DNA of 64,000 nucleotides from a virus (taxonomy: Duplodnaviria; Heunggongvirae; Uroviricota; Caudoviricetes): positions 43,214 through 107,213 of IMG/VR virus record IMGVR_UViG_2595698869_000001; one strand, 5' to 3'. Of the stretch, positions 13,214-62,125 are shown piece after piece. The position numbers and the translations under genes were made by a program. Numbering within the stretch: position 1 is the first letter of the stretch; every line of letters starts with the position of its first letter. The notes under the pieces were generated by a model, which was given only the letters and a program-made list of their open reading frames with translations, was not told the origin of the DNA and did not search any database.

Positions 13214-13668
13214 TGCTCGAACACGACATGCTCCGGCAAGTCCTGGAGCAGCAGGCCGTCGCCGCCGCCCCGACGATCGGGCTGAAGCTGAACTTCGACA
13301 ACTCCGAATTCGTCCAGCCCAAGGACGGCGCGCACTGGGCCGAGTTCTGGGTCCAGACGGGCAACACCGTGCCCTGCGAGGTCGCTGGCCCGCGCGGCTA
13401 CGAAAAGACCTCGGGCCTGATCCAGTTCACGCTCAAGGCCCCCGAGGAAGAAGGCAACGGCGCGATCCTCAAGAAGGCCGGCGCGCTCAAGAAGGTCTTC
13501 AACCGCCGCCAATGGGTCGTGGCGCCGGACGGCTATGTCACCCTCGACCCGATCTCGGTCCAGTCGCACGGCAAGCCGATCGACGGCTTCTATAATGTCG
13601 TGGTCTGGGCGACCCTCTGGTTCTACCACCGCGATCCCGACGCCGACGATCGCTGGATTCGCGGTTGA
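13213..13668 (+). CDS. Tail terminator protein
   Basis: Start placed at ATG 13213 (GGAGAGG RBS); G..Q..G.IQF.L..P..G.G pattern; directly before the tube gene. Confidence 0.75.
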   Translation: MLEHDMLRQVLEQQAVAAAPTIGLKLNFDNSEFVQPKDGAHWAEFWVQTGNTVPCEVAGPRGYEKTSGLIQFTLKAPEEEGNGAILKKAGALKKVFNRRQWVVAPDGYVTLDPISVQSHGKPIDGFYNVVVWATLWFYHRDPDADDRWIRG

Positions 13669-13811
13669 CCGCGTCTTTCACGCCGGCTAAGGTCGTGAAT
13701 CTTGACATTTCCCAAAGTCTAGGGTAGGGTCACCACACTTGCGATGCAGGGCCGGGTCGGCACGCTCGCTGACCCCCTTTTGTCACAAAACCGTGGATTG
13801 GTGACCTGCCC

Positions 13812-15644
13812 ATGGCTGCATCGTTCTTCGCCGACTCCAACCGCGCGCGGATGCGCTACATCAAGGAGAACAACGTTGTCTGGGGCGTGACCCCCGCCAG
13901 CGGCGTCTCCCGTGAACTGCGGTACACCGGCTCCACCGTCAACGCCCAGAAGGACACGACCCTCTCGGAAGAAATCCGTGCTGACCGCATGGTGTCCGAG
14001 ATCGTCGAGGTCGCCGCGCGCACGACGGGCGAAATCAACATCGAATTCTCGGCCGGCTCGCACGACGACCTGCTGGAAGCCTTCATGTACGGCGCCTGGA
14101 CGCGCCCGATGACCTTCGACTCGGTCCAAGGCGTCTCGCTCGAATGGGCCGACACCGACACCCTGTACGTCAAGGGCAAGAACGTCACGCCCTACTTCTT
14201 CGCCGGCCGCCGCGTCCGTACCCAGGGCTTCATCAACGTCGCCAACAACGGCTACTGGCAGATCGACACGATCACCTTCAACGCCGGCGCCAACCGCACC
14301 GAGATCAACATGTCGACGTCGACCGCTGTCGCTGAGCGCGGCACGGCCTACTCGGCGCTCTACGACGCCAACGACGTCATCGTGCTGAACAACACCGCCA
14401 TCCGCGCCGGCACCGGCGGCGAGGCGGCGTTCGACTCCAACGGCACCAACGCCTTCGCTGCGGCGATCGCGGCGGGCCAACTGTCGGTCGGCCAGAAGAT
14501 TTTCGTCGAAGGCCTGGGCTTCGAGACCGGCACGGTCGTCCTGGCTGGTCTGCCGACCGCCGGCGCCCGCGTCCAGATCAGCGACGGCGTCAAGACGGTT
14601 CCCTTCCAGTTCGGCGGTTCGGCGGCTCAGCCGACCGTGGTCGTCGCCCTGGGCGCCGACGAGACGGAGACCGCTCAGAACCTCGCCGACGCGATCAACA
14701 AGCTGCGCGTGCGCAAGCAACTGGAAGTCGGGGCCTCGGCCGCGACCGGCACCGTGACCCTGCGCAACCTGCTGGTCACCGGCGGCTCGATCATCGAGAC
14801 CGTGGCCGACGCCAACGTCACCGTGACCAACTTCTCGGGCGGCGACGCCTCGCTGCGCGGCGTGTTCACGATCGAAGCGCTGACCGACGACAAGATCACC
14901 GTCAACCCGGCGCCCGCGACCCTGGCCAACACGACGGCCAAGGTCAACATCAAGGGCTCGATGCTCCGTAACCCGTTCGACCCGGACGTGATCACGGCGC
15001 AGTCGTTCACCTTCGAGACCGGCTTCGAGGACGTCGACCAATACTACCTCGCCGACGGCATGCGGATCGGCACGGTCGCGCTGAACATCGCGGCCAACTC
15101 GATCCTGACGGGCTCGTTCGGTCTGCAAGGCCGCGCCTCGACCCGTCAGAACACCTCCAAGCTCGGCGAAGCGCCCTACACCGCGCTCCAGACGACCGCG
15201 ACGCCCGTGGCCAACGCCACCGTCAACGTCGGCAAGATCGCCATGAACGGCGAAGAACTGTCGACCGCCGTGCAGTCGATCGCCATCAACGGCACGAACA
15301 ACCTGCGTGACCAGATGGCCGTGGGCTACAAGTTCCCCGCCGGCATCGGCGCGGGCCGCATGGAAATCTCCGGCTCGCTGGTCGCCTACTTCGCCGACGG
15401 CAACCTGTGGGACAAGTTCATCAACCACGAGACCGTCTCGGTGAGCTTCCCGCTGACCGACGTGCTGGGCAACCACTACGAGTTCACGATCCCGGCGGCG
15501 AACTTCTCGACCGACACCGTGAACCCGGCCGGCGGCAACCAGGACATCATGGAGAACCTGGAATACACCGCCAAGCGCGACCCGGTCACCGACTGCCAGT
15601 TCCAGATCGACCGCTACTCCTCGATCTTCGCGAACACGAACTAA
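13812..15644 (+). CDS. Major tail tube protein (610 aa, with inserted domains)
   Basis: N-terminal ELRYTG...SEEIRADRM...GEINIEFS and C-terminal GRMEISGSLVAYF tube motifs; own promoter motif at 13692. Confidence 0.88.
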   Translation: MAASFFADSNRARMRYIKENNVVWGVTPASGVSRELRYTGSTVNAQKDTTLSEEIRADRMVSEIVEVAARTTGEINIEFSAGSHDDLLEAFMYGAWTRPMTFDSVQGVSLEWADTDTLYVKGKNVTPYFFAGRRVRTQGFINVANNGYWQIDTITFNAGANRTEINMSTSTAVAERGTAYSALYDANDVIVLNNTAIRAGTGGEAAFDSNGTNAFAAAIAAGQLSVGQKIFVEGLGFETGTVVLAGLPTAGARVQISDGVKTVPFQFGGSAAQPTVVVALGADETETAQNLADAINKLRVRKQLEVGASAATGTVTLRNLLVTGGSIIETVADANVTVTNFSGGDASLRGVFTIEALTDDKITVNPAPATLANTTAKVNIKGSMLRNPFDPDVITAQSFTFETGFEDVDQYYLADGMRIGTVALNIAANSILTGSFGLQGRASTRQNTSKLGEAPYTALQTTATPVANATVNVGKIAMNGEELSTAVQSIAINGTNNLRDQMAVGYKFPAGIGAGRMEISGSLVAYFADGNLWDKFINHETVSVSFPLTDVLGNHYEFTIPAANFSTDTVNPAGGNQDIMENLEYTAKRDPVTDCQFQIDRYSSIFANTN

Positions 15645-15795
15645 GGGCTTAGTCACGATTCCCCCGAATCGTGACAGCCCCCACCCGCTTCCCCCGATAG
15701 ACCAAAGTCCCCAGGACAGAAGTCTCAGCGCTGAGCAGGGCCGCCCGGAAATCGGGGCCGGGCGGCCCACCCTCCCCGATACGGAATCCCCGAAC

Positions 15796-16224
15796 ATGAC
15801 CGACAAGATCAAGATCGACATGCTGGACCTCTTCTCGACCGATCGCGAGTCGGAAGAAGCGGGCGTCTGGATTTACCTGGACGAGGCCGAGCAGACCGGT
15901 TTCAAGATTCGCGCCCTGGGCGCCAAGGCGGTCCTCGACCTGCGCGAGGAACTGACCAAGAAGTACCAGTCTCTGATCCGCGCGGGCGGCAAGCTCCCGG
16001 ACGAGAAGGTCGAGGAAATCAACCTGAAGGTCATCGCCGGCGGCGTGCTGGCGGACTGGAAGGGCATCATCGTCGGCGGCGAGGAAATCCCCTACAGCGC
16101 CGAGGCGGCCTACACGGTCCTGAGCAACCCGAAGCTGGGCAAGATGTCCGCCTTCATCGCTCAGCACTCGATGGACGCCCAGAACTATCGCGACGACGCC
16201 CGTGAGGACGCCGCAAAAAACTAA
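15796..16224 (+). CDS. Tail assembly chaperone (G-like)
   Basis: Between tube and tape measure; ends in slippery A-AAA-AAC immediately before the stop. Confidence 0.85.
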   Translation: MTDKIKIDMLDLFSTDRESEEAGVWIYLDEAEQTGFKIRALGAKAVLDLREELTKKYQSLIRAGGKLPDEKVEEINLKVIAGGVLADWKGIIVGGEEIPYSAEAAYTVLSNPKLGKMSAFIAQHSMDAQNYRDDAREDAAKN

Positions 16225-16691
16225 CGGCGGCTCTGGAGTTCACGCTCAGCCAGAAGCACGGGGGTAGCGGGCGCGTCAAGTCGGCGGCCCGCGCCCCCAA
16301 TGCCGAATCGCCTGACGACTGGCTGGCGCGGATCAAGGCTCAGAACTCCGGCCCTCCGCCGAGCGCGGACGACGAGTTCGACCTGAACGCAGAGCCGAAG
16401 GGGATTGAGCCCTATCCGGACCTCCTGTGGGTCTGGGACGGTTTCTGGCGCCTCTCGAACAAACGCCCCAACGGCATGTCTGGCCCGATGCGGATTCCGA
16501 CCTCGGAGATCGAGGCTTTCACCCGCATCCGGCGCTGGGACTACGCCAAGAGCAACGAATTCCTGTTCTACGTCGACATGATGGACGAGGTCTACATGGC
16601 CCACGTCGCCAAGGTCCTCGAAGAGCAGGAGCGCCAGCGAGAAACCGCCGCCAACAAGCCCCCGATCCACAATAAGCGGGGCCGCCGATAG
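15796..16691 (+). CDS. Extended tail chaperone (GT-like) via -1 frameshift at 16215-16221
   Basis: The -1 frame is open from the slippery site to TAG 16691 (...KLTAALEFTL...LLWVWDGFWRLSNKRPNGMSGPMRIP...). Confidence 0.8.
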
Positions 16692-16696
16692 GATCA

Positions 16697-19600
16697 ATGG
16701 ACAGCGAAGCCCTCAAGCTTAAGATCGATTCCTCGCAAGCGCGTACCGACCTGGACGCGCTTGCGAAGTCCCTCGACCGCGCGTCCAAGGCCGCCGGCGC
16801 CATGCAGTCGAACCTCGCCAAGGGGGTCGACAAATCTAACGAGGCCCTGTCGCGCGGGGCCAAGAACATCGAGAAGTTCGCCCGCGTCACGGCGGAACTC
16901 TCGAAGGTCAAGCTGTCGGGCGATCCCGCCAAGCAGTTGACCGAATTCGCCAACGCCGTCTCGGCCGTGGCGCGCGCGCGCGAGATCAGCGCCGCCAAGC
17001 TCAATGGCCTGTCGAAGTTCGTCCAGGTCGGCGCGGCTATCTCCAAGCTGCGGTTCACCGGCGAGTCCTTCTCGGGTCTGCACGCCCTGACCCAGGCGAT
17101 GGACGAGGCCGGGCGCGCCCGCGCCGTCAGCGCCGCCAAGCTCAAGTCGTTCGTCGACTACATGGAAGTCGCCGCGCGCGCCTCGCGCCTGCGCTTCTCG
17201 TCCCAGACCTCCGAAGCCCTGAAGTCCCTGGCCAGCGCCATGGATGCGGTCGCGCGTTCGCGCGTGGTCAGCCCCCAGAAGCTGGCGGCCTTCAAGGAAC
17301 TCTTCGCCACCCTGGCCACCGCCAAGGGCGTGCCGAACGCCGGCGCGATCGCCCGCGACCTCGACACCATCGCCGGGGCCGCCTCGCGCGCCGCCAAGGC
17401 CATGGCGGAACTCAAGGGCGCGCGCTCGGGCATGGGCTCGATGCGCGCCTCGGGCGGGGCCGGCGGCGGCGGCGGGATCGCCTCGGGCGCCTCCTCGAAC
17501 GTCAAGCGCTTCAACGAGGAAGTCGCCAAGGTCAAGGGACACACCGACAACGCCTCCAAGGGCGTCGATGGGCTCGGCAAGGGCCTGGGCCTTCTGACCG
17601 GCCGCTTCAACCTCTCCTATCAGGCGGGCACGCTGTTCTCGGCGCTGTTCTCGTCCTTCACCTTCGGCCAACTGGTCAAGGGCATCTACGACACCACGGT
17701 CTCGTTCCAGAAGCTGAACAAGGCCATGCTGTTCGTCACCGGCACCTATGCCGGCGCGCACAAGGCGACGCAGGACTTCATCGACATCTCGGTGCAACTG
17801 GGCGCGTCCGTCGAGGACAACGCCGACGCCTACTCGCGCTTCGCCATCTCGTCGGCCGCCGCCGGACTGAAGCTGGCTGACGTCAACAAAATCTACAAGT
17901 CCACCCAACTTGCCCTGACCGCCGTCGGCGCCAACAGCGAGCAGGTCGGCTACGCCTTCTACGGCCTGTCGCAGGCCATGGCGAAGGGCAAGATTTCGTC
18001 CGAAGAGTTCAACCGCCAGATCGGCGAGCAAATCCCCGGCAACGCCCAGGCGGGGGCGCGCGCCCTGTCCAAGCTGACCGGGCAGCAGAAGTCGGTCGCC
18101 GACCTCTTCGACGAGATGCGCAAGGGCACGCTCCAGTCGGCGCCGTTCCTCAAGGCCTGGGCCGACGAGATCAACCGCATGTTCGCCCCGCTGCTGCCGG
18201 AGGCCGAAAAGCGCCCTGACTTCCAACTGAACAAGCTCAAGACCGCCTTCTCCCTGTGGAAGAAGGAAGTCGGCCAGTCGCAGTTCATCGGCGCTCTGAC
18301 CACCCAGTTCAAGAAGCTCTCGGACATGCTGATCGTGGTCGAGGGCGACCACTATGTCCTGACGGAGCGCGGACGCAAGCTCGCCGACTCGTTTGGCAAG
18401 GGACTGGCCCAGGCCGTCAACATTCTCGGCAACGCCCTGGCGTGGCTGGCGGACAACCTCGACAAGGTCGTCGCCGTGATCAAGGTGATCGGAGCCCTGG
18501 CGATCGGCAACGAGTTCGCCAAGTGGGGCCGGCAGGTCGCGGCCTTCGCCGACAACATGCTGGGCGTCAAGCGGGCGATCGAGGAAGTCTCGGTCGCCGA
18601 GACCACCGCCTCGGGTAAGCGCGCGGTGACCTCCAAGGCCGGGGCGGTCAACGCCGTCTCGACCGTGGCGTCCGATCGCATGGCGATGGCGACCAACCGC
18701 ACCCGTAACGCGGTGATGGGCGGCACCTTCGTCGCCAATGCGGTGGCTCCTGCCGTGCGTCAGTCGCCGCAGTTCTCGCAACTCTCCTACCTGACCGGCA
18801 ACCCGACCTCGCCCACGCGGGGCGCGCCGACGTTCGGCCGCCGCCAGCCCTATACCGGCACCATGACCTTCGACGCGCGCCCGGCGGGCCGGGCCGGTGG
18901 CATGGGCGGCCTGTTCGCCGCCATGGGTTCGGGCGCGGCGACCGCCGCCACCGGAGCCTTCACGGGCCTGCGCAAGGCGCTCAACGTCCTGCCCGGCGTC
19001 GCCCTCGGCGCGGCGGTCGCCCTGGCGATCTTCGGCAACAGCATCACCAAGCTGAACGACAAGGCCGTCTCGTACAACAACATCGCCGCCGGAGCCCTGG
19101 GCACGGCGGGCGACGAGATCGGCAACGGCATGACCGGGCTGATCAACGGCATCCGGGGTCTTTTCGGCGCCCAGCAGAAGGCCCAGGGCACCGGCGATTG
19201 GCTGGTGGACCTCTCTGCCACGCTGATCGTCTTCGGCAAGGCCATCTTCACCCTGGCGACCACGCTCGGTAAAATCCTCGGCACGCTGATGGCCAATGTC
19301 ATCATCCCGTGGATCGAACTGGGCCAAAAGGTCGCTTCGGGCGACCTGAAGGGCGCGGCGGGCAAGGCCGGCGAGGTCCTGATGGGGCAGATCGGCAAGG
19401 GCAATCGCGAGCGCTGGGCCGAACTGGGTAAGGAACTGGGCAAGGACTGGGGCAAGGCCCTGGACTACGCGGGCACGCGCCAGTCGATCGTCAACGGCGC
19501 CCTGAAGTCGGCGGCCGGCGACAGCGCCGCCCAGCAGGGGGCCAACGCCGCCGAGAAGATGACCGAGGCGGCTCTGGCGCAGATGAAGGCCGCCGACCAG

Positions 19601-22570
19601 CAGGCCCTCGCCGCCGCCGACTTGAAGGACGCCACGGCGAACTTCAAGAAGGACCTGGAGCCGCTCAACTTCAACGACCTCTTCAAGCGCGCCGCCGCCC
19701 TGGCCGACGGCAGCTTCGCGCGCACCGCCGCCGCGTCCAAGCCGGGTGGCATGATGGCGCCGCCGGCCGTGGCGACGCAACAGACCGCCGCCGCCGTCAA
19801 GGCGACCATCGCCTCGATGGGCGATCGCGTGTACGCGACGGCCGGGCAGCATCTCGGTCAGACCGAGGCCAAGGACGCCGCGTCCCTGCAAGCCTACTTC
19901 AAGGCCAACGGCGTCACCATCGATCCCAAGAAGCTCTCCTGGTGCGCGGCCTTCGTCAACGCCGTCCTGGCCCAGAACGGGCTCTCGGGCTCGGGCTCGC
20001 TGGCGGCCTCGTCCTTCAAGGACTATGGCGACGAGGTCTCGCGCACCGACGCCCGCAAGGGCGACATCGTCGTCCTCAAGCCCCAGGCGGCGGGCGCGAC
20101 CGGTCACGTCGGCTTCCTCGACGGCTTCGACCGCCACGGCAATGTGCGGGTGCTGGGCGGCAACCAGGGCGCGGCCGGCGGCGGCGGCGTCAACGTCTCG
20201 ACCTTCGCCTCCAATCAGGTCGTCTCCTTCCGCCGCACGGGCAGCGGCGGGGCCTCCAACTTCCTGGGCGGCGGCATCACCGAGGCCCAGGGCGAAGAAG
20301 GCGGCTCGCGCTACGAGCGCCGGATGAACGCCTTCAAGGCGCTCGGGACGATCACCGGCCAAGCCTCGCCGGCCGCCGACGCCCTGGCCGACTACCAAGG
20401 CAACCTCGAAAAGCTGCGCGACATCATCGTCTCGGAAGAGAAGCTGCTGAAGGACGTCGGGGCCGACGGCCAGTCGTTCTTCAACAAGACGAACCTGGAA
20501 GCCCTGGTCGCCGCTCAGAAGAAGTGGAACCGCTCGATCGTCGAGGCGCTCAACCCGATCGCCAAGGAAGCCCGGACCCTGTCTGAGGCCAACGACGTCC
20601 TGCAATTGCGCGCCAAGGGCCTGTCGCAGGAAGCCGACTGGCAAGAGCGTCTGACCGAACTGCGCAACTCCGGCATCAATGTCGACCTGATGCAGGATGA
20701 GGCCAAGTGGACCCAGTACCTGAACGAGTTGAAGAAGCAGGGCCTGGAGATCGACGTCAAGGCCCTGCAACTGAAGCCGGACGAACTGCGCTACCAGCAG
20801 GGTCGCGCCGAGGCGCTCCAGGCTGAACTCGACCTGACCAAGGCGCTGAACGACGCCAAGCTGGCGGGCATCGCCCGCACCGGCTCCAGCTACGACCGCA
20901 CCCTGTCGGGCCTCGTCGCTGGCAAGGGCCGCGACGGCGAGACGCTCGACCAGACCCGCCAGCGTCTGGCGGGTTCGGTTGGCAGCGACGGCCGCAACGC
21001 GCTGGAGGCCCTGCAAGAGCAGGCCGGCGTGATGGAAGGCTCGCGCATGGCCGACGTCAAGGCCAGCATGCAGTCGCAGCTTGAGATCATGCGCGAGAGC
21101 GCGCGCCTCAACAACACCCAGCGCGGCATCTACGACGACTACCGCAACATCCTGGGCGAACTGCTGAACAAGCAGGGCGCCTCGCTGAAGGAACTGCTGG
21201 ACTCGGCCGACGAGGAGACCAAGCGTCTCGCCCAGTCGTTCGTCCGCGCCAAGGCGGACTTCGAAAACCCGCCCGGCTTCCAGAAGTGGGCCGACTCCCT
21301 GGAGCCGCTGAACAAGCGCCTCCAGGACATCAAGGCCAACTTCCTCGACAACTTCTCCGGCGGCATCACCGATGCGCTGCTGGGCGAGAAGGTCGACTGG
21401 AAGGCGATGCTGCACGACACCTTCAAACAGATGCTGCGCGCCCAGGTCGATGAGGGTCTGAAGAGCCTCACCTACAAGCTGCTCGGCCAAGGAGGCGACC
21501 AGGGCGCGGCCCAAACCCCCGAAGCCCAGGCGCTGGTCTCGGCGGCCGATGTCCAATTGCAGGCCGGCAACAGCCTGCAACAAGCCGCCGCCAGCCTGAT
21601 GCAGGCGGCTCAGACCACCGCGACCGCCGGCGCGGGCGGCGGCCTGGGCGTGATGACGGGCGGACCCGCGATGGGCGGCCTCGGCGGTCTCCTGGGTGGT
21701 GGCGGCGGCCTCGGCGCGCTGGCCGGCGTCCTGGGCGGCGGCGACGGCACGGCGACCAACCCGTTCTCGATCGCCGACACCATCCTCAAGCCCCTGGTCG
21801 TCGACCAGACCGGCGGACCGGGTTTCCAGGCGGCGGGCGCGGCGCTCCAGGGCCTGAACATCACTCCGCCGGGCGGCGGCGGCTTCCTGTCGGGCCTGGG
21901 CTCGATGTTCCAAGGGGGCCTGGGCTCGATGCTGCAAGGCGCTCTGAGCTTCGCCGGCCCGCTGCTGGGCGGCCTGCTGACGGGGGGCAAGAAGAGCCCC
22001 AAGACGCCGGCGAGCTATCGCATGCCGGGCGGCGTCATCGGTCAGGCGAGCACCAACAGCGTCTCGGGTCGCGTGATCGGTCCCAAGCAGAACCTGATCG
22101 GCTCTCTAGCGAACCTGGGCTTCCAGTTGTTCGCGGGCGGCATGGGTGGCGGCGGCGGCCTGATGAGCATGTTCGGCATGGGCGGCGCTGGCGGCGCGGG
22201 AAGCTTCATCGGCTTCAAGGAAGGCGGCCTGACGGGCGCGCCAGTCAACCGTTACACCGTCTCCTCGCTGGGCTCGATGTTCGCCAACGCTCCGCACTAT
22301 GCCGAGGGCACCAGCAACACCAAGCTGGCCAACGGCGGCATGCCGGCGATCGTCCACCCGGACGAGGCGGTGATCCCGCTGTCGCGTGGCCGCAACGTCC
22401 CGGTGGAACTGAAGGGCGCCGGCGGCGGAAGCTCGACCACCGTGGTCTCGCCGATCACCGTCTACGCCAACGACGTCGATAGCTTCCGCCCGGCCCAGGC
22501 GCAGATCGCCCGCAAGCAGAACCGCACCCTGCGCCGCGCGGCCCTGCGCAACGCCTCGATGGTCAACTAG
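16697..22570 (+). CDS. Tape measure protein with internal CHAP/NlpC-like peptidoglycan hydrolase domain
   Basis: 1957 aa, Ala/Gly-rich helical; tape-measure motif SQAMAKGKISSEEFNRQIGE; WCAAFVN...GHVGF...VLGGNQG; C-terminal HPDEAVIPL. Confidence 0.93.
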   Translation: MDSEALKLKIDSSQARTDLDALAKSLDRASKAAGAMQSNLAKGVDKSNEALSRGAKNIEKFARVTAELSKVKLSGDPAKQLTEFANAVSAVARAREISAAKLNGLSKFVQVGAAISKLRFTGESFSGLHALTQAMDEAGRARAVSAAKLKSFVDYMEVAARASRLRFSSQTSEALKSLASAMDAVARSRVVSPQKLAAFKELFATLATAKGVPNAGAIARDLDTIAGAASRAAKAMAELKGARSGMGSMRASGGAGGGGGIASGASSNVKRFNEEVAKVKGHTDNASKGVDGLGKGLGLLTGRFNLSYQAGTLFSALFSSFTFGQLVKGIYDTTVSFQKLNKAMLFVTGTYAGAHKATQDFIDISVQLGASVEDNADAYSRFAISSAAAGLKLADVNKIYKSTQLALTAVGANSEQVGYAFYGLSQAMAKGKISSEEFNRQIGEQIPGNAQAGARALSKLTGQQKSVADLFDEMRKGTLQSAPFLKAWADEINRMFAPLLPEAEKRPDFQLNKLKTAFSLWKKEVGQSQFIGALTTQFKKLSDMLIVVEGDHYVLTERGRKLADSFGKGLAQAVNILGNALAWLADNLDKVVAVIKVIGALAIGNEFAKWGRQVAAFADNMLGVKRAIEEVSVAETTASGKRAVTSKAGAVNAVSTVASDRMAMATNRTRNAVMGGTFVANAVAPAVRQSPQFSQLSYLTGNPTSPTRGAPTFGRRQPYTGTMTFDARPAGRAGGMGGLFAAMGSGAATAATGAFTGLRKALNVLPGVALGAAVALAIFGNSITKLNDKAVSYNNIAAGALGTAGDEIGNGMTGLINGIRGLFGAQQKAQGTGDWLVDLSATLIVFGKAIFTLATTLGKILGTLMANVIIPWIELGQKVASGDLKGAAGKAGEVLMGQIGKGNRERWAELGKELGKDWGKALDYAGTRQSIVNGALKSAAGDSAAQQGANAAEKMTEAALAQMKAADQQALAAADLKDATANFKKDLEPLNFNDLFKRAAALADGSFARTAAASKPGGMMAPPAVATQQTAAAVKATIASMGDRVYATAGQHLGQTEAKDAASLQAYFKANGVTIDPKKLSWCAAFVNAVLAQNGLSGSGSLAASSFKDYGDEVSRTDARKGDIVVLKPQAAGATGHVGFLDGFDRHGNVRVLGGNQGAAGGGGVNVSTFASNQVVSFRRTGSGGASNFLGGGITEAQGEEGGSRYERRMNAFKALGTITGQASPAADALADYQGNLEKLRDIIVSEEKLLKDVGADGQSFFNKTNLEALVAAQKKWNRSIVEALNPIAKEARTLSEANDVLQLRAKGLSQEADWQERLTELRNSGINVDLMQDEAKWTQYLNELKKQGLEIDVKALQLKPDELRYQQGRAEALQAELDLTKALNDAKLAGIARTGSSYDRTLSGLVAGKGRDGETLDQTRQRLAGSVGSDGRNALEALQEQAGVMEGSRMADVKASMQSQLEIMRESARLNNTQRGIYDDYRNILGELLNKQGASLKELLDSADEETKRLAQSFVRAKADFENPPGFQKWADSLEPLNKRLQDIKANFLDNFSGGITDALLGEKVDWKAMLHDTFKQMLRAQVDEGLKSLTYKLLGQGGDQGAAQTPEAQALVSAADVQLQAGNSLQQAAASLMQAAQTTATAGAGGGLGVMTGGPAMGGLGGLLGGGGGLGALAGVLGGGDGTATNPFSIADTILKPLVVDQTGGPGFQAAGAALQGLNITPPGGGGFLSGLGSMFQGGLGSMLQGALSFAGPLLGGLLTGGKKSPKTPASYRMPGGVIGQASTNSVSGRVIGPKQNLIGSLANLGFQLFAGGMGGGGGLMSMFGMGGAGGAGSFIGFKEGGLTGAPVNRYTVSSLGSMFANAPHYAEGTSNTKLANGGMPAIVHPDEAVIPLSRGRNVPVELKGAGGGSSTTVVSPITVYANDVDSFRPAQAQIARKQNRTLRRAALRNASMVN

Positions 22571-22653
22571 CTGTCACCCACGACAGTCGTGAATCTTGAC
22601 GTTCCTGGATGATCGTGGCATCCAGGGACACCTCCTTTCATGGTTAATGCCCG

Positions 22654-23304
22654 ATGCCGAGCTTCCACGACGTCCTGTTCCCCGAGACTATCAGCTACGG
22701 CTCGTCAGGCGGGCCGAAGTTCAAGACCACGATCTTCCAGGCCGACAGCGGCTTTGAGCAGCGCAACAAGGACTGGAGCGACATCCGCTGCGAGTACGAT
22801 GTCGCCCAGTCGATCCGCTCGACCGAGGACATGGACGAGCTTCGCGCCTTCTTCATGGCCCGCAACGGTCGCGCCCATGGCTTCCGCTACAAGGACTGGG
22901 GCGACTTCCGCCTCAAGAACCAGTTGATCGGCGTCGGCGACGGCCTCACCAAGGTCTTCCAGATCGTCAAGACCTATACCAGCGTCGCCCACGACGGCAC
23001 CGAGTACACCTACACCCGCACGATCCGCAAGCCCAAGTGGGACTCGATCGCCGGCGTCAAGGTCGGCGCCGTGGTTCAGGTCGCCCCGACCAACTACGAG
23101 GTCGACTATTCGACCGGCCTGATGACCTTCGTCACCGCGCCGCCGGCCGACGCCCCGGTCACCATTGGCCTGGGCGAGTTCCACGTCCCCGTCCGCTTCG
23201 ACACCGACTTCATGGACGTCACCCAGGAGTTCTGGATGCGCGAGACGTGGCCCAACATCCCGATCGTCGAAATCCGTGACTGGCAAGAGGCCCTGACGCC
23301 GTGA
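22654..23304 (+). CDS. Distal tail protein (DUF2460-like)
   Basis: FHDVLFP..ISYGSSGGP.F.T, FFMARNGRAHGFRYKDWGD, VPVRFDTD. Confidence 0.88.
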   Translation: MPSFHDVLFPETISYGSSGGPKFKTTIFQADSGFEQRNKDWSDIRCEYDVAQSIRSTEDMDELRAFFMARNGRAHGFRYKDWGDFRLKNQLIGVGDGLTKVFQIVKTYTSVAHDGTEYTYTRTIRKPKWDSIAGVKVGAVVQVAPTNYEVDYSTGLMTFVTAPPADAPVTIGLGEFHVPVRFDTDFMDVTQEFWMRETWPNIPIVEIRDWQEALTP

Positions 23305-24926
23305 AATCCGTCCCCGAAGACCTGATGGCGCACCTCCAGGAGGAGGTGACCACGCTCGCGACGTGCATCACGATCGTGCGCCAGGACGGCAAGGCGTTCT
23401 TCATGACCGACCACGATCGGCCGATCAAGTTCGAGAACCAGACCTACGTCCCCTACGACTCCTACCAGCGCACGTCGATCCTGATGTCGTCGGAACTGGA
23501 AGTCGACACCGCCGACATCACCGCCTTCCTGACCTCGAACGGGGTGACGCGCGACGACGTGGCCTCGGGCCTGTTCGACTATGCCGCGATCAAGGTCCAG
23601 TTGCTGAACTACGAGCGGCCCGAGGACGGGGCGATCCTGCTCCGCAAGGGCACGTTCGGCGAAGTGACCATGAACCAGGACGAGACCTTCTCGGCCGAAA
23701 TCCGGGGCATGACCCAGGTCCTGACCTACCGGGTCGGGGAGACCTACGCGCCCGAGTGCCGGGCCGACCTCGGCGACCGCCGCTGCAAGATCGGACTGAT
23801 GCCGGAGGAATGGCAGGCCAACAAATACTACGGCCTCGACGCCTGCGTGCTGGGCGAACTCGTCGCCCCTACGTCGTTCGTCAATCCCGTGGTCGTCAAC
23901 GGCAACTTCGAGGACGGCGCCCTCAACGCCGTCGTCACCGCGCCGACGGGCTGGGTGGCCTATGGCGATCCGACCAGCCGCTGGGTCTACAAGCACGACT
24001 GGTACAATCTGTCTCGCCCGCAGGTCGGCAATCAGTTCATCGCCGCCACCCGCACCTCGATCTCCGACAAGCAGGAAATCGCCGGCATCTACCAGGACAT
24101 CAACCTCGTCTCCGCCGGCGTGCCCGCCGCCGCGATCGACGGCGGCCTCTGCCGCGTGCGCTACAAGTCCTTCGCCGCCTGCCTCAACAACCGCGCCCAA
24201 TCGCGCGAGCGCCTGACCTGCATCAAGGCCGACGGCTCGGTGGAGACGATCTGGGACACCGGTGAGATCAAGTACCCCGAGGACCGCTGGATCGCGGTCA
24301 ACGCCGACGACGTCCTGATCCCGGCCGGCACGCGCGTCCTGCGCATCGACCTGTGGTCCAAGAAGCGCAGCGTCCACGAGGAGGGCGCGGCCTATGACGG
24401 GATCAGCCTGTCGATCAACCTGCCGGCGGGCACGGCCGGCAACGCCAACGTCTATGGCGGGGTGATGTTCAAGTGCATCCAGGCGGGGATCAGCGGCGGC
24501 ACCGAGCCGGCCTGGACCAACGAACTGGGGGCCACCTATACCGACGGCACGGTCATCTGGCAGTGCGTGTCCAACTACAAGAAGGTGGGCACGGTCGCCA
24601 CGGTCGCCTCCAACAAGTCGTTCACCTCGACCGACATCACCGAGCCGGCCGGTCACTATGACGGCGGCGTGCTCTACTGGGAAACCGGCCGCAACGCCGG
24701 ACGCGCCCAGGAGATCAAGACCTGGGCCGCCAACCTCTTCACGCTCTTCCAGCGCACCTACTATCCGATCACGGCGGGCGACCGCTTCGTGGTCTATCCC
24801 GGCTGCGACAAGCGCCGCGCCACCTGCGCCGACAAGTTCCACAACATCCACAACTTCCGCGCCGAGCCCGACGTGCCCGGTCAGGACATCTACTACCGCA
24901 CGCCCAACGCTCCGGAGCAGGAATGA
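23301..24926 (+). CDS. Baseplate hub protein (DUF2163-like) with inserted domain
   Basis: TTLATC..I.RQDG...TDHD, C.A.LGD.RC, GCDK...C..KF.N..NFRAEP.VPG; long central insertion. Confidence 0.85.
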   Translation: MKSVPEDLMAHLQEEVTTLATCITIVRQDGKAFFMTDHDRPIKFENQTYVPYDSYQRTSILMSSELEVDTADITAFLTSNGVTRDDVASGLFDYAAIKVQLLNYERPEDGAILLRKGTFGEVTMNQDETFSAEIRGMTQVLTYRVGETYAPECRADLGDRRCKIGLMPEEWQANKYYGLDACVLGELVAPTSFVNPVVVNGNFEDGALNAVVTAPTGWVAYGDPTSRWVYKHDWYNLSRPQVGNQFIAATRTSISDKQEIAGIYQDINLVSAGVPAAAIDGGLCRVRYKSFAACLNNRAQSRERLTCIKADGSVETIWDTGEIKYPEDRWIAVNADDVLIPAGTRVLRIDLWSKKRSVHEEGAAYDGISLSINLPAGTAGNANVYGGVMFKCIQAGISGGTEPAWTNELGATYTDGTVIWQCVSNYKKVGTVATVASNKSFTSTDITEPAGHYDGGVLYWETGRNAGRAQEIKTWAANLFTLFQRTYYPITAGDRFVVYPGCDKRRATCADKFHNIHNFRAEPDVPGQDIYYRTPNAPEQE

Positions 24927-25348
24927 CCCGCGACGACATCGTGACCGAAGCGCGCCGCTATGTCGCGCTCCAAACCCCCTGGCGTCATCGAGGCCGCACC
25001 GAACGCGGCCTCGACTGCATCGGGCTGGCCGTCATGATCTTCGAGAAATTCAACCTGGAATACATGGACCAGGACGGTTACGCGCGCACGCCCGACGGCG
25101 AGAAGTTCGTCGAGGTGATCCGCCAGCACATGACCCTGGCCGATCCGACGGCGCTCAAGCCGGGCATGCTGCTGCTGTTCAACGACGACGCCCGGCCCTG
25201 CCATGTCGGCATCCTGGCGCGCCAGCACGGACGCCTGACCCTGATCCACGCGACCGCCGACAAGAAGCGGACGGTCGAGGAAGTCTATGACCGCCGCTAT
25301 GCCGCCCGGTTCCGCATGGCCTTCGATTTCCCCGGCGTTGAGGACTAA
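24923..25348 (+). CDS. NlpC/P60 tail peptidase
   Basis: W.H.GR...GLDC.GL and HVGI...LIHA motifs. Confidence 0.9.
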   Translation: MTRDDIVTEARRYVALQTPWRHRGRTERGLDCIGLAVMIFEKFNLEYMDQDGYARTPDGEKFVEVIRQHMTLADPTALKPGMLLLFNDDARPCHVGILARQHGRLTLIHATADKKRTVEEVYDRRYAARFRMAFDFPGVED

Positions 25349-57903: not shown

Positions 57904-58594
57904 AGAGAAGCTCCGGTTTGGCGCTGACCGGCTTGGACCAATCCCAGACGTACCAAGCGTAGGCGAAGCGCGGGGCGCCCTTGGTGCCGGCGATCCAGCG
58001 GGGGCGGTGACGAAGGGTGACCTTCGCGGTGAAAGCGGGGTGATCGAACAGGTCCGCGCGCGAGCGCGCCGCGTCCCATTCGTGGCGGCAGAGGAAGGCC
58101 ACGAGGCCCTGGTCGGCCTCCATCAGGTCCAGCGCGTGGCGCGCGGCGCGCTCGGCGTCCTTGCCGTAGGGCGGGTTGGTGATGATCGCGTCCGGACGCG
58201 GCGGCAACGGCGTGCTCTTGCGCTCCTCGCCCTTCTCGTCGACAACCGTCTCGGGCCGGACCTTCAGCGCGCCCAGGCGGTCGAGGTCGGCCGGCGTCAG
58301 CTTGAAGAAGTCCTCGACCGCGTCGACCTCGAAGCCCTCGTAGCGGTGGATGTCCGTGGCGAGGACTTCCTGCACGAAGGGCTTGAGCGGCGTGGCGATG
58401 GCGCCGTTGCCGGCGAAGGGCTCCCAGGCGAAGAACGGGGCGAAATCATCGCCCAGGGCCTCGATCAGGGCGTCGAAGGCCGGCCGAGGAGTCGGGTAAA
58501 AGTCCAGCGGGGTCCTGGCATATCCGGAGGCGCCCAGCATGGAGGGGTCTTTGCGACCAGCATCGGAGAGAGACATGGTCGTGAGGGATGTCAT
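57893..58594 (-). CDS. Amino-(N6-adenine/N4-cytosine) DNA methyltransferase-like protein
   Basis: DFYPTP, WEPFAGNG (SAM binding), IITNPPYG (catalytic). Confidence 0.82.
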   Translation of the reverse strand: MTSLTTMSLSDAGRKDPSMLGASGYARTPLDFYPTPRPAFDALIEALGDDFAPFFAWEPFAGNGAIATPLKPFVQEVLATDIHRYEGFEVDAVEDFFKLTPADLDRLGALKVRPETVVDEKGEERKSTPLPPRPDAIITNPPYGKDAERAARHALDLMEADQGLVAFLCRHEWDAARSRADLFDHPAFTAKVTLRHRPRWIAGTKGAPRFAYAWYVWDWSKPVSAKPELLYAG

Positions 58595-58659
58595 GGTTAA
58601 CGAAGGGTGTCAAGATTCACGACATTGACTGTCGTGACGCAGCACGTTAATCAGGAGGC

Positions 58660-59285
58660 AACGGGCCGTCCTTCTGCATTAGCCCCGCCGCCGCGCCTTC
58701 CAGGCGGCACGGGCCGGGACGGTGGTTGGTGACGAGCAGGCCGAGGCAGCGGCGGGCGAGTCGAAGGAGAACCCGGCGAGCGGCGGAAGGCGTCGTTGAC
58801 GCCCTCGGACTCGACAAGCACGTGGTGATGCCGGAAATCACCGCGATCGCGCGGACGTCTGGACGTTGCTAGGCGTAAGGCAGGCCTGCCGAGAAGTGGA
58901 AACGGCCGGGGCGGGCGGGACTTGATCTCGTCCGCCTTTCCGCCTAAGCTTCCCTCATTGCAGGCGCAGCACCGCCCTTCGCTAACGGCCCCGAGGGGTA
59001 CGCAAGGGCTAGAAGCCTTGCCTGGGACAGGACTGCCTCTGATCCAGGAACGCCCTGGGCCGCGTAGCGCCCATGACGCGAACGCCGGCCGAGAATGGGC
59101 GACTAGGCGTGACGGCGGCCAGAGGCCGCAGCGACATTCCAAGCTCGATAGAGCGATCGGCGGGCCGGGGCGAAAGCCCTGTTTCGAGAGCCAGGGCAAC
59201 CCGTCATAGGTCCTGGTCGGGCGACGAGGCAGCAAGTCCCGCGAACGGAGCCTCTGAGGTGGCGTCACCAAGATGCAGCAGACGC
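58660..59285 (+). ncRNA. Unassigned ~630-nt structured RNA candidate
   Basis: TTGACT(58625)-N15-GTTAATCA promoter, terminator 59286-59319, end-to-end helices (58674-79/59273-78; 58726-34/59263-71), many GNRA-capped hairpins, no ORF with phage codon bias. Confidence 0.6.
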
Positions 59286-59319
59286 AAAAAGGCCCCGATC
59301 GCGAGATCGGGGCCTTTTC
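59286..59319. terminator. Bidirectional terminator
   Basis: AAAAAGGCCCCGATC-GCGA-GATCGGGGCCTTTT. Confidence 0.85.
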
Positions 59320-59323
59320 ATGT

Positions 59324-59412
59324 TGGAGCTTCGGGAGGGACTCGAACCCTCATAGGTGTTCCCACCAGCAGAGATTTGCAATCCCGCGCCTAACCTCTCA
59401 GTCCACCGAAGC
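59324..59412 (-). tRNA. tRNA-Cys(GCA) with long variable arm
   Basis: GCTTCGG/CCGAAGC acceptor, loop TTGCAAA, GGTG-GGAA-CACC extra arm, U73, CCA. Confidence 0.85.
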
Positions 59413-59456
59413 ACAAAAGGACCTCGACGCCCGAAGGCCCGAGGTCCGATCCGTAA

Positions 59457-59589
59457 CCAGGGGAGGGCCGTAGCTGTCCCCTGACCCTGAACGACAGGTG
59501 GCGGGCTTGGTCGTCATCCCGTCAGGCTCGCGGCGCCGCTCGCCTGAACCGCCGATATGCCACGAGGGCAGTGATCCGCAGGTCCCCAC
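59457..59589 (-). ncRNA. 6S RNA-like rod with central bubble
   Basis: Self-complementary rod (GGGGA/TCCCC, CTGCCCT/GGGGACAG, GGCGG/CCGCC, TCAGGC/GCCTGA), small hairpin in the 3' bubble, flanked by terminator-like hairpins. Confidence 0.45.
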
Positions 59590-59596
59590 AAATAGC

Positions 59597-59635
59597 AAAA
59601 AGGCCACGATCCGCGAGGACCGTGGCCTTTTCGTT
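59597..59635. terminator. Bidirectional terminator
   Basis: AAAAAGGCCACG...CGTGGCCTTTT. Confidence 0.8.
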
Positions 59636-59639
59636 TTCC

Positions 59640-60510
59640 GATGGGCTGAGACTACACCCATCAGCAATCCCGCTTCGAGGATTATTCCCCAGGTGCGACC
59701 CCAGGTATTCCCTCGACGTCCACCAGACCCCTTGCGGTAGTCCAGTCCGAGATCATCGCCGCCGTTCTTGCGCACCCCGAAGGGATTGCGGGTCTGGCGT
59801 TTGACCCATCATGGCGAACTACTCGACAGTTCCTTCCCCGCTGGGCTTGCGACCCACTCACCGGCGCTAACCGGCTGACGAAGCTCTTCCTATCGACACC
59901 TCGCGGGCTTGCGACCCTTGAGATGACTCCGTTACCCGAAGGCCGGAGCATTTGGCGACTTACGTCCGCCACTGGACCAGTCTTTGCGTTTTTCATCGAA
60001 GCGGGGATTGAACCCGCGACCGACAGCTTAAGAGGCTGTTGCACTACCACTGTGCTATTCGCAAACCCACCAAGACGTGCTGGTCCAGTTGTTCCCAGAG
60101 CTTTTGACCCCGGAAATGCAACACGCCTCATATCTTTCGCCTTGCGGGCTACTCGACTGCTCTTCAGGACTCCGTCTCCCCCAACCTTTCGGCCAGGATG
60201 CCCAGCACCCCTCGAACTGAAGCAAAGCTCTTCACCGCGAAGTGTCGAACCCTGCAACCCAAACGGTTATCCGTACTCCCTAGACACGCTTGCACGGGAT
60301 AGTCCGCTTGCGACGGACTGGCGGTTAAAGCCTCGGAGTTACCCCGGCCCCGCCTTGTCTCCCACGGTCTTCAGGTCTATCCCCTTTTGCAAGAGGCGGC
60401 CAGCTTCCCAGCCCGGACCCGTCGGCTTCCTCTGTCCTCTTGCGAGGTCGGGCGGCCTATGGGAGACCGTCCCTGTCACCCCGTCGCCGGGGCTTTCGTC
60501 AGAAGCGACG
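59640..60510 (-). ncRNA. ~870-nt GOLLD-like large structured RNA
   Basis: TTGACG(60544-60539)-N15-GCTAGAAC promoter, at least seven GCAA/GAAA-capped hairpins on the minus strand, long-range helices, embedded tRNA body, terminator at 59597-59635. Confidence 0.65.
59994..60064 (-). tRNA. tRNA-Lys(CTT)-like body embedded in the large RNA, no CCA
   Basis: D arm GCAC-AGTGGTA-GTGC, ACAGC-CTCTTAA-GCTGT, GCGGG-TTCAATC-CCCGC; acceptor only 4 bp, continuing into a longer stem. Confidence 0.7.
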
Positions 60511-60631
60511 ATGACGTTCTAGCGACAGCCCACGTCGTCGTCAACGACTTTTTCCGTCTCGATGTCGAATTTTTTCGACAGTCGTGGATGACGACAGTGC
60601 TTGACATTCTCGTAAGCCCATGCTAGGTGTC

Positions 60632-61003
60632 GGAAATCGTTGTAATTCGGACAACGGAACTGGCGGCAAGACAGGGGTGCGAATCCCCTCGCCTCCACCA
60701 TCGACGCCCGGCGCTGGGAGTACGCGACTCCTGGGCAGGGAGTGTTACCCTGGCGGGCTGCGGCCCGAGCCAAAGGTAGCCGGGCGTCGTTGATGGGGGC
60801 GACTAGCTTTCGATTGGCGCTCGGGACTGAAAGACGCAACGGTGGGTGACCTCCACATCGGCTTGCCGGTGATCGGGTCAGGCAACAGTAAATGTCGCCG
60901 ACAATGACAACGACGTCGTGGCTTTCGCCTCGGCTCGTGAAGCCATCGCCGCCTAATAAGCGGTAGAGGAGCCCGCCGGGAGCTTGGCAACAGAATCCCG
61001 GCA
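60632..61003 (+). ncRNA. ssrA: Two-piece (circularly permuted) tmRNA
   Basis: Acceptor piece ends GGGGTGCGAATCCCCTCGCCTCCACCA (60700). Coding piece starts GGGGGCG (60795), giving a 7-bp stem with G3-U70. Tag frame 60897-60956 reads ADNDNDVVAFASAREAIAA-stop. Promoter TTGACA(60601)-N15-GCTAGG. Confidence 0.9.
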
Positions 61004-61137
61004 ACCCCCTTTCGCAGGCGGGAACACCAACAGGCGATCTGTCGGGCGACCGATTTCCGATCCGTGTTCCCGTCTTCGAAAGGTGGTCAGGCCTACCCTC
61101 TTGGTGTGCTATCCAAGGGTCTGGCCACTTTACAGAA

Positions 61138-61216
61138 CGCGGGGTAGAGGAGTCCGGTTGTCCTCGTCTGGCTCATAACCAGGAGATCGTGGGTTCAAAT
61201 CCCACTCCCGCTCCCA
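61138..61216 (+). tRNA. tRNA-fMet(CAT)
   Basis: Unpaired C1, CGCGGGG start, loop CTCATAA, T arm GGTTCAAATCC, CCA. Confidence 0.8.
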
Positions 61217-61495
61217 ATGCGAACGCCGGCTGTTGAGAACGACGGCGTGACAAGCTCGGAGAGAACGAGCACTCCAGTCCGGGGTATGAGGCCGGACTAG
61301 CGGACGCCGTAGCGATTGCAGGCGTGACACCCGGAGATAGCGGGACCGGCTTTCCGAGCCGCATGCTCGGCGCGTAAGACCGCAGGCCTCGGCCATCGGG
61401 CAGTGTCAGGGGATGAGGCTAGTCCTCGGCTAACCACCTAGCGGTGAAGCTAGGGCATGCGGTTCGGAAAGCCGGGTTCGCGGTTCGTCCGCTAC
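61217..61495 (+). ncRNA. Structured RNA with two C4-like modules and a 20-23 bp stem
   Basis: ACGCC...GGCGTGACA-stem-GGAGA module at 61223 and 61304; helix 61346-61365/61456-61475; helix 61298-61306/61486-61494. Confidence 0.5.
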
Positions 61496-61496
61496 G

Positions 61497-61575
61497 AGAT
61501 GGAGATGTCGCCGGTTCGAGTCCGGCAGGTCCCCCAAAAGGAGGCCTTAGCTCAGTCGGTAGAGCGCTCCTATCC
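61497..61575 (+). ncRNA. Circularly permuted tRNA mimic (YrlA/Y RNA-like topology)
   Basis: Order is stem, variable loop, T arm (GCCGG-TTCGAGT-CCGGC), closed acceptor hairpin, TA, D arm (GCTC-AGTCGGTA-GAGC), stem. Confidence 0.7.
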
Positions 61576-61582
61576 CACCTTT

Positions 61583-61667
61583 GGTACGGTGGCTCGACAG
61601 GTAAGGCATCGGCCTCATAAGCCGAGGGTTCGTCCCAATCCTGGTTCAAATCCAGGTCGTACCTCCA
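61583..61667 (+). tRNA. tRNA-Met/Ile2(CAT) with long variable region
   Basis: GGTACGG/TCGTACC acceptor, TCGGC-CTCATAA-GCCGA, T arm, T-CCA. Confidence 0.8.
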
Positions 61668-61771
61668 AATCGACGCTTGACCCCAGGCCGCAGGCTGCTA
61701 AGCTTCCCCGGTCGGGATCGTCCCGCGTCCTTTCCAAGGTCAAGCCCCCGGAGCTTCGCTTCGGGGGCTTT

Positions 61772-62125
61772 TCAGTTCTTGACCACCCGCAGGCGCCGGG
61801 CCTCGATGGCGCGCTCCTCCGCCGCCACGCGCGAGACGTCTTGCAGGTGCGCCTTGGCGATCAGGTCGGGCGCGCCCACGGCCCGGAAGGGCACCTTGAC
61901 GGAGAGGTCGACATAGCGCCGCAAGAGAGGCTCGAATTCCAGACCCCGCGCCTGGGCGATCCGCGACAATGCGCCGGCGACGATCGCCACGACCAGGACG
62001 TTGGTCGGGGTCTCCTTGGTCAGGGTCCAGATGCCCGGTATCGATTGTCCAGGATGGAGTTCCTGCCGCGACACGTCATCGGCGGCGGCGCGGAAGAGGT
62101 TCTCGTAAGGGACGTTTTCGAGCAT
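61772..62125 (-). CDS. Hypothetical protein (117 aa)
   Basis: Strong codon bias; a hairpin terminator at ~61742-61775 separates it from the RNA island. Confidence 0.7.
   Translation of the reverse strand: MLENVPYENLFRAAADDVSRQELHPGQSIPGIWTLTKETPTNVLVVAIVAGALSRIAQARGLEFEPLLRRYVDLSVKVPFRAVGAPDLIAKAHLQDVSRVAAEERAIEARRLRVVKN

Follow-up and report, generated by a model that had tools for sequence, protein, structure and literature searches.

The locus considered here raises the question of what an island of about 3.2 kb, made of RNA genes only, is doing among the replication genes of a phage. The island occupies positions 58595-61775 of the window (the whole 64,000-nt stretch analysed, positions 43,214 to 107,213 of IMG/VR virus record IMGVR_UViG_2595698869_000001, to which all coordinates refer unless stated otherwise), and belongs to a 221.8-kb phage genome with terminal repeats. 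An earlier note, made from the letters of the window, had described about 3 kb without a codon-biased open reading frame (ORF) and at least nine separately folding RNAs, and had proposed a coordinated set of mimics addressing RNA polymerase, ribosome rescue, initiation, and RNA repair and decay. The island was found to be real, transcribed, conserved and RNA-only; islands of its general kind are already known, and it is unusually rich among them. It is probably best explained as a second gene island for tRNAs and non-coding RNAs in a phiCbK-like phage. What its parts are, and how far they are conserved, covary and are transcribed, was observed and is described in the following sections.

Conservation and Coding Potential

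The island was 98% identical to Caulobacter phage phiCbK over its length. It was compared with phiCbK, Swift, Ccr10, BL57, Rogue, BL10, RBC63, Colossus and PW, and with the Brevundimonas phages Bajun and Kabachok. In all relatives examined, the same block had a DNA methylase gene, accompanied by an A1-like DNA-transfer gene, on one side and a helicase gene on the other, in agreement with the location between replication genes given by the earlier note. The names of the flanking genes were taken from the GenBank records of the relatives; Pfam returned no matches on the flanking proteins. Alignment of the locus across phiCbK-like genomes, a check that the earlier note had asked for, showed the position of the island to be syntenic across the Dolichocephalovirinae, with the GOLLD RNA and a permuted tRNA-like element variably present. 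A metagenomic viral contig (L029) carried an equal set of RNA genes.

GC content was flat over the three codon phases from ~58600 to 61770; at third positions it was 0.86-0.94 in the flanking genes. The longest ORF, with 206 codons on the minus strand (58651-59271), carries the annotation 'hypothetical protein' (gp290) in phiCbK. Its GC content by codon position was 0.69/0.68/0.68, it was interrupted by 1-nt indels even between phages 91-96% identical, and its substitutions by codon position were 16/24/23, third positions not being in excess. The core observation of ~3 kb without a codon-biased ORF therefore stands. The predicted gp290 product was rich in Arg and Pro and had no Pfam match; gp290 is an improbable candidate for the hidden conserved ORF by which the earlier note thought the region might be explained.

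That the island is partly protein-coding, with gp290 and alike coding sequences (CDS; 58651-59271 and the BL57 GOLLD 5' domain) being real genes, is hardly credible: it has in its favor the 206-codon ORF itself and the CDS annotated within the island in GenBank records, against which stand the codon-position GC, the frame-breaking indels, the even substitutions and the composition of the gp290 product, and the fact that the annotated CDS vary in length and frame from record to record. 'Hypothetical protein' CDS were annotated inside the island as phiCbK gp290, Rogue gp307, Colossus gp163 and BL57_145/146c. They look like mis-annotated non-coding RNA, as judged by position for all and by the above tests for gp290 alone.

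Promoters, Terminators and Transcription

The promoter pattern TTGAC/T-N, 14-16 nt, nCTA, built from the three promoters of the earlier note, matched 17 times in the window, as compared to 4.1 ± 1.7 times in shuffles. Five of the 17 matches were in the island, all of host type (TTGAC-N15/16-nCTA), at 58625 (+), 58922 (+), 60544 (-), 60601 (+) and 61677 (+), with promoter-like boxes at exactly the positions of the first, third and fourth as previously described. Further matches preceded the tRNA arrays. The genome-wide form of the box was TTGACA-N15/16-GCTAGAAG, which by eye resembles the Caulobacter sigma73 consensus. Terminator-like hairpins numbered 9, with 3.4 expected, in line with the three or more terminators previously reported. 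Promoters and the terminators bounding the units were as follows:

58625-58653, plus strand: promoter box of small-RNA unit A, TTGACT-N15-GTTAATCA, host-type, with the surrounding 60 nt invariant in 8 phages
58922-58950, plus strand: internal promoter-like box, TTGATC-N15-CCTAAGCT, its spacing kept in the Rogue and BL57 types
59287-59319, both strands: bidirectional terminator of small-RNA unit B
59419-59440, minus strand: terminator-like hairpin between GOLLD and tRNA-Cys
59596-59633, minus strand: terminator after GOLLD, a 17-bp hairpin and a U run
60509-60544, minus strand: GOLLD promoter, consensus-grade, TTGACG-N15-GCTAGAAC
60601-60629, plus strand: promoter of the operon of transfer-messenger RNA (tmRNA) and tRNA, TTGACA-N15-GCTAGGTG, divergent from the GOLLD promoter
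61677-61775, plus strand: fifth promoter-like box (61677-61705), then a terminator hairpin (61745-61775)

RNA sequencing (RNA-seq) data consisted of four runs (X1-X4) of one 2023 study, which contained a close relative and were read as assembled contigs. Contigs covered the island, the GOLLD unit being at the highest depth, and the earlier note's expectation of a transcribed region was thus borne out. In run X2, depth was 10 on the methylase side (58225-58637), 385 at 58684-59308, 3942 at 59328-60482 and 163 from 60567 onward; the pattern in X3 resembled that in X2. In runs X1 and X4, GOLLD pieces were at 13,000-25,000 and their flanks at 324-629. Contig breaks coincided with predicted unit ends, and depth differed sharply between units. 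Contigs started at 58679-58733 in unit A and at 60567-60631 in the tmRNA-tRNA operon. Depth steps of this size within 2 kb are not producible by DNA carry-over. The steps at the unit borders indicate that GOLLD is the dominant RNA of the locus, and that the element of 630 nt at its left edge, an unassigned RNA in the earlier note, is a distinct and well-expressed unit.

Two side observations concern the edges of the island. About 45 nt at 58595-58640 (plus strand), up to and including the -35 box of unit A, were invariant in 8 phages, in which the RNA downstream was only ~70% identical; this stretch holds a TTAAC half-site and may bind a regulator. At the right edge, 61677-61775 may encode an RNA of ~60 nt whose end would face the 3' end of a gene on the minus strand (61772-62125).

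GOLLD RNA

59643-60500, minus strand: GOLLD RNA, with a conserved 3' domain (59643-60129) and a variable 5' domain to ~60500

The GOLLD model (RF02032) matched 59643-60129 (minus strand) with 171.2 bits (cut-off 150) over its full length (1-416 of 416), and a tRNA-like body with the anticodon loop CUCUUAA was present in the linker at 59992-60065 (minus strand); the GOLLD-like RNA with an internal tRNA of the earlier note was thereby confirmed. The promoter at 60544 and the terminator at 59596 bound ~900 nt, and RNA-seq contigs spanned 59318-60496. A large transcript (GOLLD RNAs often exceed 800 nt), a variable 5' half, a phage context, and tRNAs inside and beside the RNA, all characteristic of GOLLD, were found.

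The inner tRNA was identical in five phages save for its anticodon loop, which had three sequences: CUCUUAA (this phage and Swift), CGUCCUA (phiCbK and Ccr10) and CAUCCUA (BL57). Two of these variants are without U33, which makes a decoding role doubtful. Variation limited to the anticodon loop could reflect relaxed or diversifying pressure.

GOLLD was present in the phiCbK group and in BL57, and weaker in Bajun (104 bits, without the inner tRNA); it was not found in the Rogue, Colossus and Kabachok types. Close relatives without GOLLD and without the permuted tRNA-like element, which was confined to the phiCbK group, retained the rest of the island. The parts were thus not passed on as a single set, which argues against an obligate coordinated module.

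GOLLD has been described as phage-borne, located near tRNA islands, sometimes with a tRNA in its linker, and as forming a 14-mer cage of unknown function (PMC12286853). The supplementary GOLLD alignment of the same source (Nature, 2025) already includes phiCbK (NC_019405.1, 102288-102774, corresponding to window 59642-60128). No open-access main text linking GOLLD to Caulobacter phages was found. The view of the earlier note that the combination of RNAs is undescribed thus does not hold wholly, GOLLD adjoining phage tRNA islands being the published norm. The present RNA agrees with published GOLLD (RF02032; Weinberg et al. 2009) in its full-length match above cut-off, in being phage-borne and adjoining tRNA genes, and in its linker tRNA and variable 5' half. 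It differs in that its divergent promoter region is shared with a tmRNA operon, and in that its inner tRNA is invariant but for the anticodon loop, which varies between near-identical phages. Published GOLLD is a homo-oligomeric 14-mer nanocage by cryo-EM (D7 symmetry).

The R1 Motif and the Small-RNA Units

58660-58920, plus strand: small-RNA unit A, ending in a degenerate R1 copy and a hairpin that overlaps the -35 box of the next promoter; 5' end placed from the promoter
58957-59319, plus strand: small-RNA unit B ('type B', subfamily-wide), having a CAGCAC-loop hairpin at its 5' end, a GGACUGC box and R1 at 59072-59134

The 630-nt RNA of the earlier note remains a distinct transcribed element; it is probably not one RNA but two promoter-bearing units. 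RNA-seq contigs bridged units A and B, which is compatible with one transcript or two. In distant BLAST comparisons of 58600-59320, a core of ~55 nt (59069-59129) was common to Colossus, PW and the Brevundimonas phages, with three copies in some; it recurred in degenerate form directly after tRNA-fMet (61213-61275) and at 61292-61349. This core overlaps R1, a 63-nt motif common to the '630-nt RNA' and to what had been called C4-like modules. A covariance model built from eight copies scored 23 copies at 43-85 bits; they came from the relatives and from L029, the latter having seven. Genomes had 1-7 copies. In the phage studied, matches were confined to the island copies.

The 5' part of R1 has a (C)UGAnGnGA stretch, followed by a helix P1 (ACGCC/GGCGU, almost invariant) around a small GAGA-loop hairpin. 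The 3' part has a GAC trinucleotide, and then a hairpin P2 with free stem sequence and a C-AGA-G loop. Pairing was maintained in 88% of cells overall and in 91% in P2, as compared to 31-46% with partners slid. Changes on both sides were present in 9 of 14 pairs, including all six P2 pairs, and none of 500 shuffles reached the observed covariation. The GA dinucleotides flanking P1 would, judging from their placement, form tandem sheared G-A pairs. G-U pairs and a fixed orientation relative to the tRNAs indicate an RNA on the plus strand. With the long spacer hairpin described below, R1 provides structures with covariation, the lack of which the earlier note would have counted against itself.

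The R1 units might instead act as DNA, with transcription being incidental; they could, for instance, be iterons of an origin of replication. This is very improbable. The island does lie inside the replication module, and has repeated conserved boxes and divergent promoters; against a role as DNA, RNA pairing is preserved by compensatory changes, and the opposite strand would have A-C where the RNA has G-U pairs. Likewise, R1 copies hold one orientation relative to the tRNAs, depth was 20-40 times that of the neighboring gene in two runs, and there was no GC-skew turn at the island.

In Colossus, PW, Kabachok and L029, units 220-260 nt long lay in tandem and ended in R1, many with a TTGAC box before them. 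The last R1 copy ended 2-8 nt before tRNA-Cys (Colossus, PW and L029) or tRNA-Met (L029), so that RNase P cutting of the tRNA would set the 3' end of the small RNA. One unit type, with promoter box, CAGCAC-loop 5' hairpin, GGACUGC box and R1, was orthologous across the subfamily; in the window it covers 58957-59134 and continues as far as the terminator that ends at 59319. When whole type-B units from different genera were folded together, the consensus consisted of the 5' hairpin and R1 only, the bodies being unalignable.

Outside the lineage, two pattern scans of IMG/VR for R1 returned only known relatives, the related contig L029 and low-scoring chance matches. A pattern scan of bacterial genomes returned 53 loci, all with 26 bits or less and read as chance. 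Rfam at permissive thresholds returned only terminator look-alikes and a weak YrlA on the 630-nt element and the spacer. Antisense targets of units A and B, the leader described below as an earlier 'rod', the spacer and the tail RNA were at best 13-15 nt long (E > 0.1) in the phage's own genome.

Three known classes were considered for R1 and rejected. The likeness of the C4-like modules to C4 antisense RNA (RF01695) was a visual impression only: the model had a single match in the genome (16.6 bits), outside the island, and none in focused scans at E ≤ 10, and the modules are R1. A hammerhead core (CUGANGA ... GAAA with invariant C3, A14 and A15.1) has a similar topology, with GA/GA flanking P1; by eye, R1 carries 2 inserted nt, is variable at C3 and has GAC in place of GAAA. 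Rfam hammerheads had no match in the island scans. The core residues of R1 were, by eye, also unfit for a canonical kink-turn, and no gene of the L7Ae family, the kink-turn partner, was present in the phage or in the Caulobacter control genome.

Phage T4 has small stable RNAs, species 1 and 2 or RNA C and D, which are co-transcribed with its tRNA cluster. Compared by description, R1 RNAs are alike in being non-tRNA small RNAs abutting tRNAs in a phage tRNA operon, with ends that RNase P could set; they differ in their conserved 63-nt 3' module and in that many units have their own promoter-like box. R1 is a well-supported unclassified RNA family, found in the above scans only in this phage subfamily.

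Two-Piece tmRNA, tRNAs and the Leader of tRNA-Cys

60608-61047, plus strand: permuted (two-piece) tmRNA called by ARAGORN, tag read as VADNDNDVVAFASAREAIAA
61138-61216, plus strand: tRNA-Met(CAT), initiator-like, with a C1-U72 mismatch and beginning CGCGGGG; tRNA-fMet in the CcrBL10 record
61583-61667, plus strand: second tRNA-Met(CAT), 85 nt; variable arm long, U73
59324-59412, minus strand: tRNA-Cys(GCA), 89 nt; variable arm long, D stem of 3 bp, U73, CCA encoded; 33.8 bits
59413-59595, minus strand: leader/spacer between GOLLD and tRNA-Cys (the earlier '6S-like rod'), with the terminator-like hairpin at 59419-59440

The two-piece tmRNA of the earlier note was recovered with tmRNA_permuted (RF04321; 71.9 bits, cut-off 47) and by ARAGORN, which returned it as 'Permuted', with the 3' tRNA domain ahead of the 5' domain and a tag ending in AA-stop-stop. 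The tag ended in ...REAIAA in all relatives checked, and the tmRNA scores of the relatives exceeded the alpha_tmRNA cut-off. SmpB was not found in the phage and was present in the Caulobacter vibrioides control genome; there was no CCA-adding enzyme in the phage. The tmRNA shares with two-piece tmRNAs of Alphaproteobacteria (RF04321/RF01849) and with phage-borne tmRNAs the permuted order, the CCA-ended acceptor piece and a tag frame ending in AA and a stop. It differs from these in its longer, phage-specific tag and in the lack of a phage SmpB. The tmRNA was annotated in some GenBank records of the relatives and unannotated in most, and neither tmRNA nor RtcB is mentioned in the paper on the phiCbK genome (Gill et al. 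2012).

All three tRNAs named in the earlier note (Cys, fMet and Met) were called by the models, among four tRNA hits in the island. The first tRNA-Met has, besides the C1-U72 mismatch, two G-C pairs at the base of the anticodon stem, where an initiator has three. A main array of 25 tRNAs elsewhere in the window is without Met and Cys; the island would therefore complete the tRNA set.

The tRNA-Cys and the second tRNA-Met are class-II-like (85-89 nt, with a long variable arm, 3-bp D stem and U73), an architecture unusual for Cys and Met tRNAs that was kept in every relative checked; the D stem resembles those of Ser and Leu tRNAs. In the main array, ARAGORN called two tRNA-Lys (CTT and TTT) of 87 and 90 nt at 6450-6536 and 6542-6631 (plus strand), which may add to the long-arm tRNAs whose anticodons are unexpected.

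The leader of tRNA-Cys was the basis of the 6S-like rod, and with it of the RNA-polymerase arm of the earlier proposal. The 6S model (RF00013) had no match in the whole phage at E ≤ 10, and the host 6S was found; the minimum-energy fold of 59413-59600 (minus strand) was branched, not the long rod with a central bubble typical of 6S RNA (z = -1.2). The likeness to 6S RNA was thus a visual impression (hairpin-rich and of similar size), and the RNA-polymerase arm is not supported. Only the 55 nt adjoining tRNA-Cys (59426-59480) were conserved in distant relatives. The segment 59413-59600 is read as GOLLD trailer and tRNA-Cys leader.

Spacer RNA and Permuted tRNA-Like Element

61217-61480, plus strand: structured spacer RNA, with two degenerate R1-type modules (61213-61275 and 61292-61349) and a long hairpin (61340-61478)
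61497-61575, plus strand: permuted tRNA-like element, with T arm, loop-closed acceptor stem and D arm

The spacer hairpin (~140 nt) had a 26-bp stem in which, among six phages, five positions had changed on both sides with pairing kept, and folded with z = -2.8. No Rfam family matched it.

The permuted tRNA mimic of the earlier note kept its topology, the T arm, closed acceptor and D arm being present in alignment, and lost its identity as a Y RNA. YrlA (RF02553) scored 29.7 bits (cut-off 69) at model positions 23-85 only, and the same model scored pairs of ordinary neighboring tRNAs at up to 25 bits. The element was without the Ro-binding stem (model 1-22 and 86-114), and TROVE/Ro (PF05731) was present neither in the phage nor in C. 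vibrioides, with only Deinococcus and Bacteroides matching among 14 control genomes. The element was confined to one genus, the phiCbK group; the spacers of BL57 and Rogue ran straight into tRNA-Met, and Colossus had no YrlA match. Its D-arm half was identical (22/22) to the phage's own tRNA-Pro, which suggests that it is likely of recent tRNA derivation. With YrlA and Y RNAs it shares a circular tRNA permutation with ends where the anticodon loop would be; it differs in having no Ro-binding stem, no Ro60/TROVE in phage or host control, and one half identical to tRNA-Pro. It is YrlA-shaped, yet no Y RNA by family-defining features, and the RNA repair and decay arm, which rested on the Y-RNA likeness, is left without a supported component.

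Two further observations lie outside the island. On the plus strand at 9392-9406, just upstream of a tRNA-Arg (9422) in the main array, 15 of 15 nt matched the T arm of the permuted element and may be what is left of a tRNA-like sequence that was never annotated. The phage has an RtcB RNA ligase gene of full length (415 bits) outside the window, at 137206-138336 (minus strand) of the phage genome; RtcB had no match in the C. vibrioides control genome. The phage RtcB is compatible with a tRNA-repair theme.

Taken at full strength, the earlier proposal is one coordinated all-RNA takeover system comprising a 6S mimic that would sequester RNA polymerase, regulatory C4-like antisense modules, a Y-RNA-like decoy for RNA repair or decay, and the tmRNA with tRNA-fMet, which would re-tool translation. 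In its favor, the RNAs are tightly packed under one promoter type, GOLLD depth was very high even in two runs with low neighboring genes, the phage has an RtcB for which the host control gave no match, and 61497-61575 does show YrlA topology. Its 6S, C4 and Y-RNA components failed on the evidence given above, and relatives keep the island without GOLLD and the tRNA mimic; such a system is unlikely. Ribosome rescue (tmRNA) and initiation (the initiator-like tRNA) are the two of its four targets that have a supported component. In Rfam, GOLLD, the permuted tmRNA and the tRNAs matched, 6S and C4 had no match in the island, and YrlA stayed below its cut-off; the count of nine separately folding RNAs was about right and several of the labels were wrong. 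The parts share location and promoter type, and joint action of the parts would be a proposal built on that arrangement.

Proposed Organization of the Island

In the preferred explanation, a second tRNA and non-coding-RNA gene island, host RNA polymerase would read the island from sigma-70-family promoters. Leftward from the divergent pair, it would make a GOLLD RNA of ~860 nt with its tRNA-like body, with weak read-through to the leader and tRNA-Cys. Rightward, a precursor would contain the two-piece tmRNA, the initiator-like tRNA-Met, the spacer RNA, the permuted element and the second tRNA-Met. At the left edge, one or two small RNAs with R1 as their conserved part would come from a unit of their own, also read rightward. 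The island tRNAs would fill the Met and Cys gaps of the 25-tRNA array, the tmRNA, with SmpB supplied by the host, would rescue ribosomes and add a tag specific to the phage, and the phage GOLLD may form the published nanocage. R1 RNAs would be a lineage-specific small-RNA family, and in the ancestral layout RNase P, by cutting the next tRNA, would set their 3' end.

Several points weigh against this explanation. RNA-seq contigs carry one depth figure each and neither strand nor ends, so transcript borders and an early or late reading of the four runs can only be inferred from them. The promoter box at 58922 overlaps a conserved hairpin and could be an RNA feature instead. Apart from R1, the long hairpin of the spacer and the Rfam families, structure support is thin: minimum-energy z-scores of units A and B and of the GOLLD 5' domain were unremarkable (-0.7 to -1.2), z-scores being uninformative in this GC-rich DNA.

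A further reading goes beyond the gene-island explanation. The R1 RNAs, laid out as a fixed 63-nt handle and a variable body, often with their own promoter-like box, would be a new lineage-restricted class that may act with GOLLD, tmRNA and RtcB on the host tRNA pool or ribosomes. That reading includes the tethered tRNA-like body of GOLLD with its fast-changing anticodon loop. It is put forward tentatively and with considerable doubt.

Implications

The analysis corrects probably spurious 'hypothetical protein' annotations in more than 10 GenBank records, and draws attention to a tmRNA that is largely unannotated in these phages. If a joint system of R1, GOLLD, tmRNA and RtcB were to exist, it might, for example, blunt tRNA-cutting defences.

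GOLLD has been without a known function since 2009, and existing experimental systems for it are awkward. In public infection RNA-seq of a phiCbK-type phage on Caulobacter crescentus, it was the most deeply covered RNA of the locus. Caulobacter crescentus is among the best genetic models, and GOLLD is not known to have been discussed before in this phage-host pair. With GOLLD-free natural relatives (Rogue and Colossus types), and with a predicted promoter and terminator consistent with the contigs, deletion, swap and pull-down experiments are feasible.

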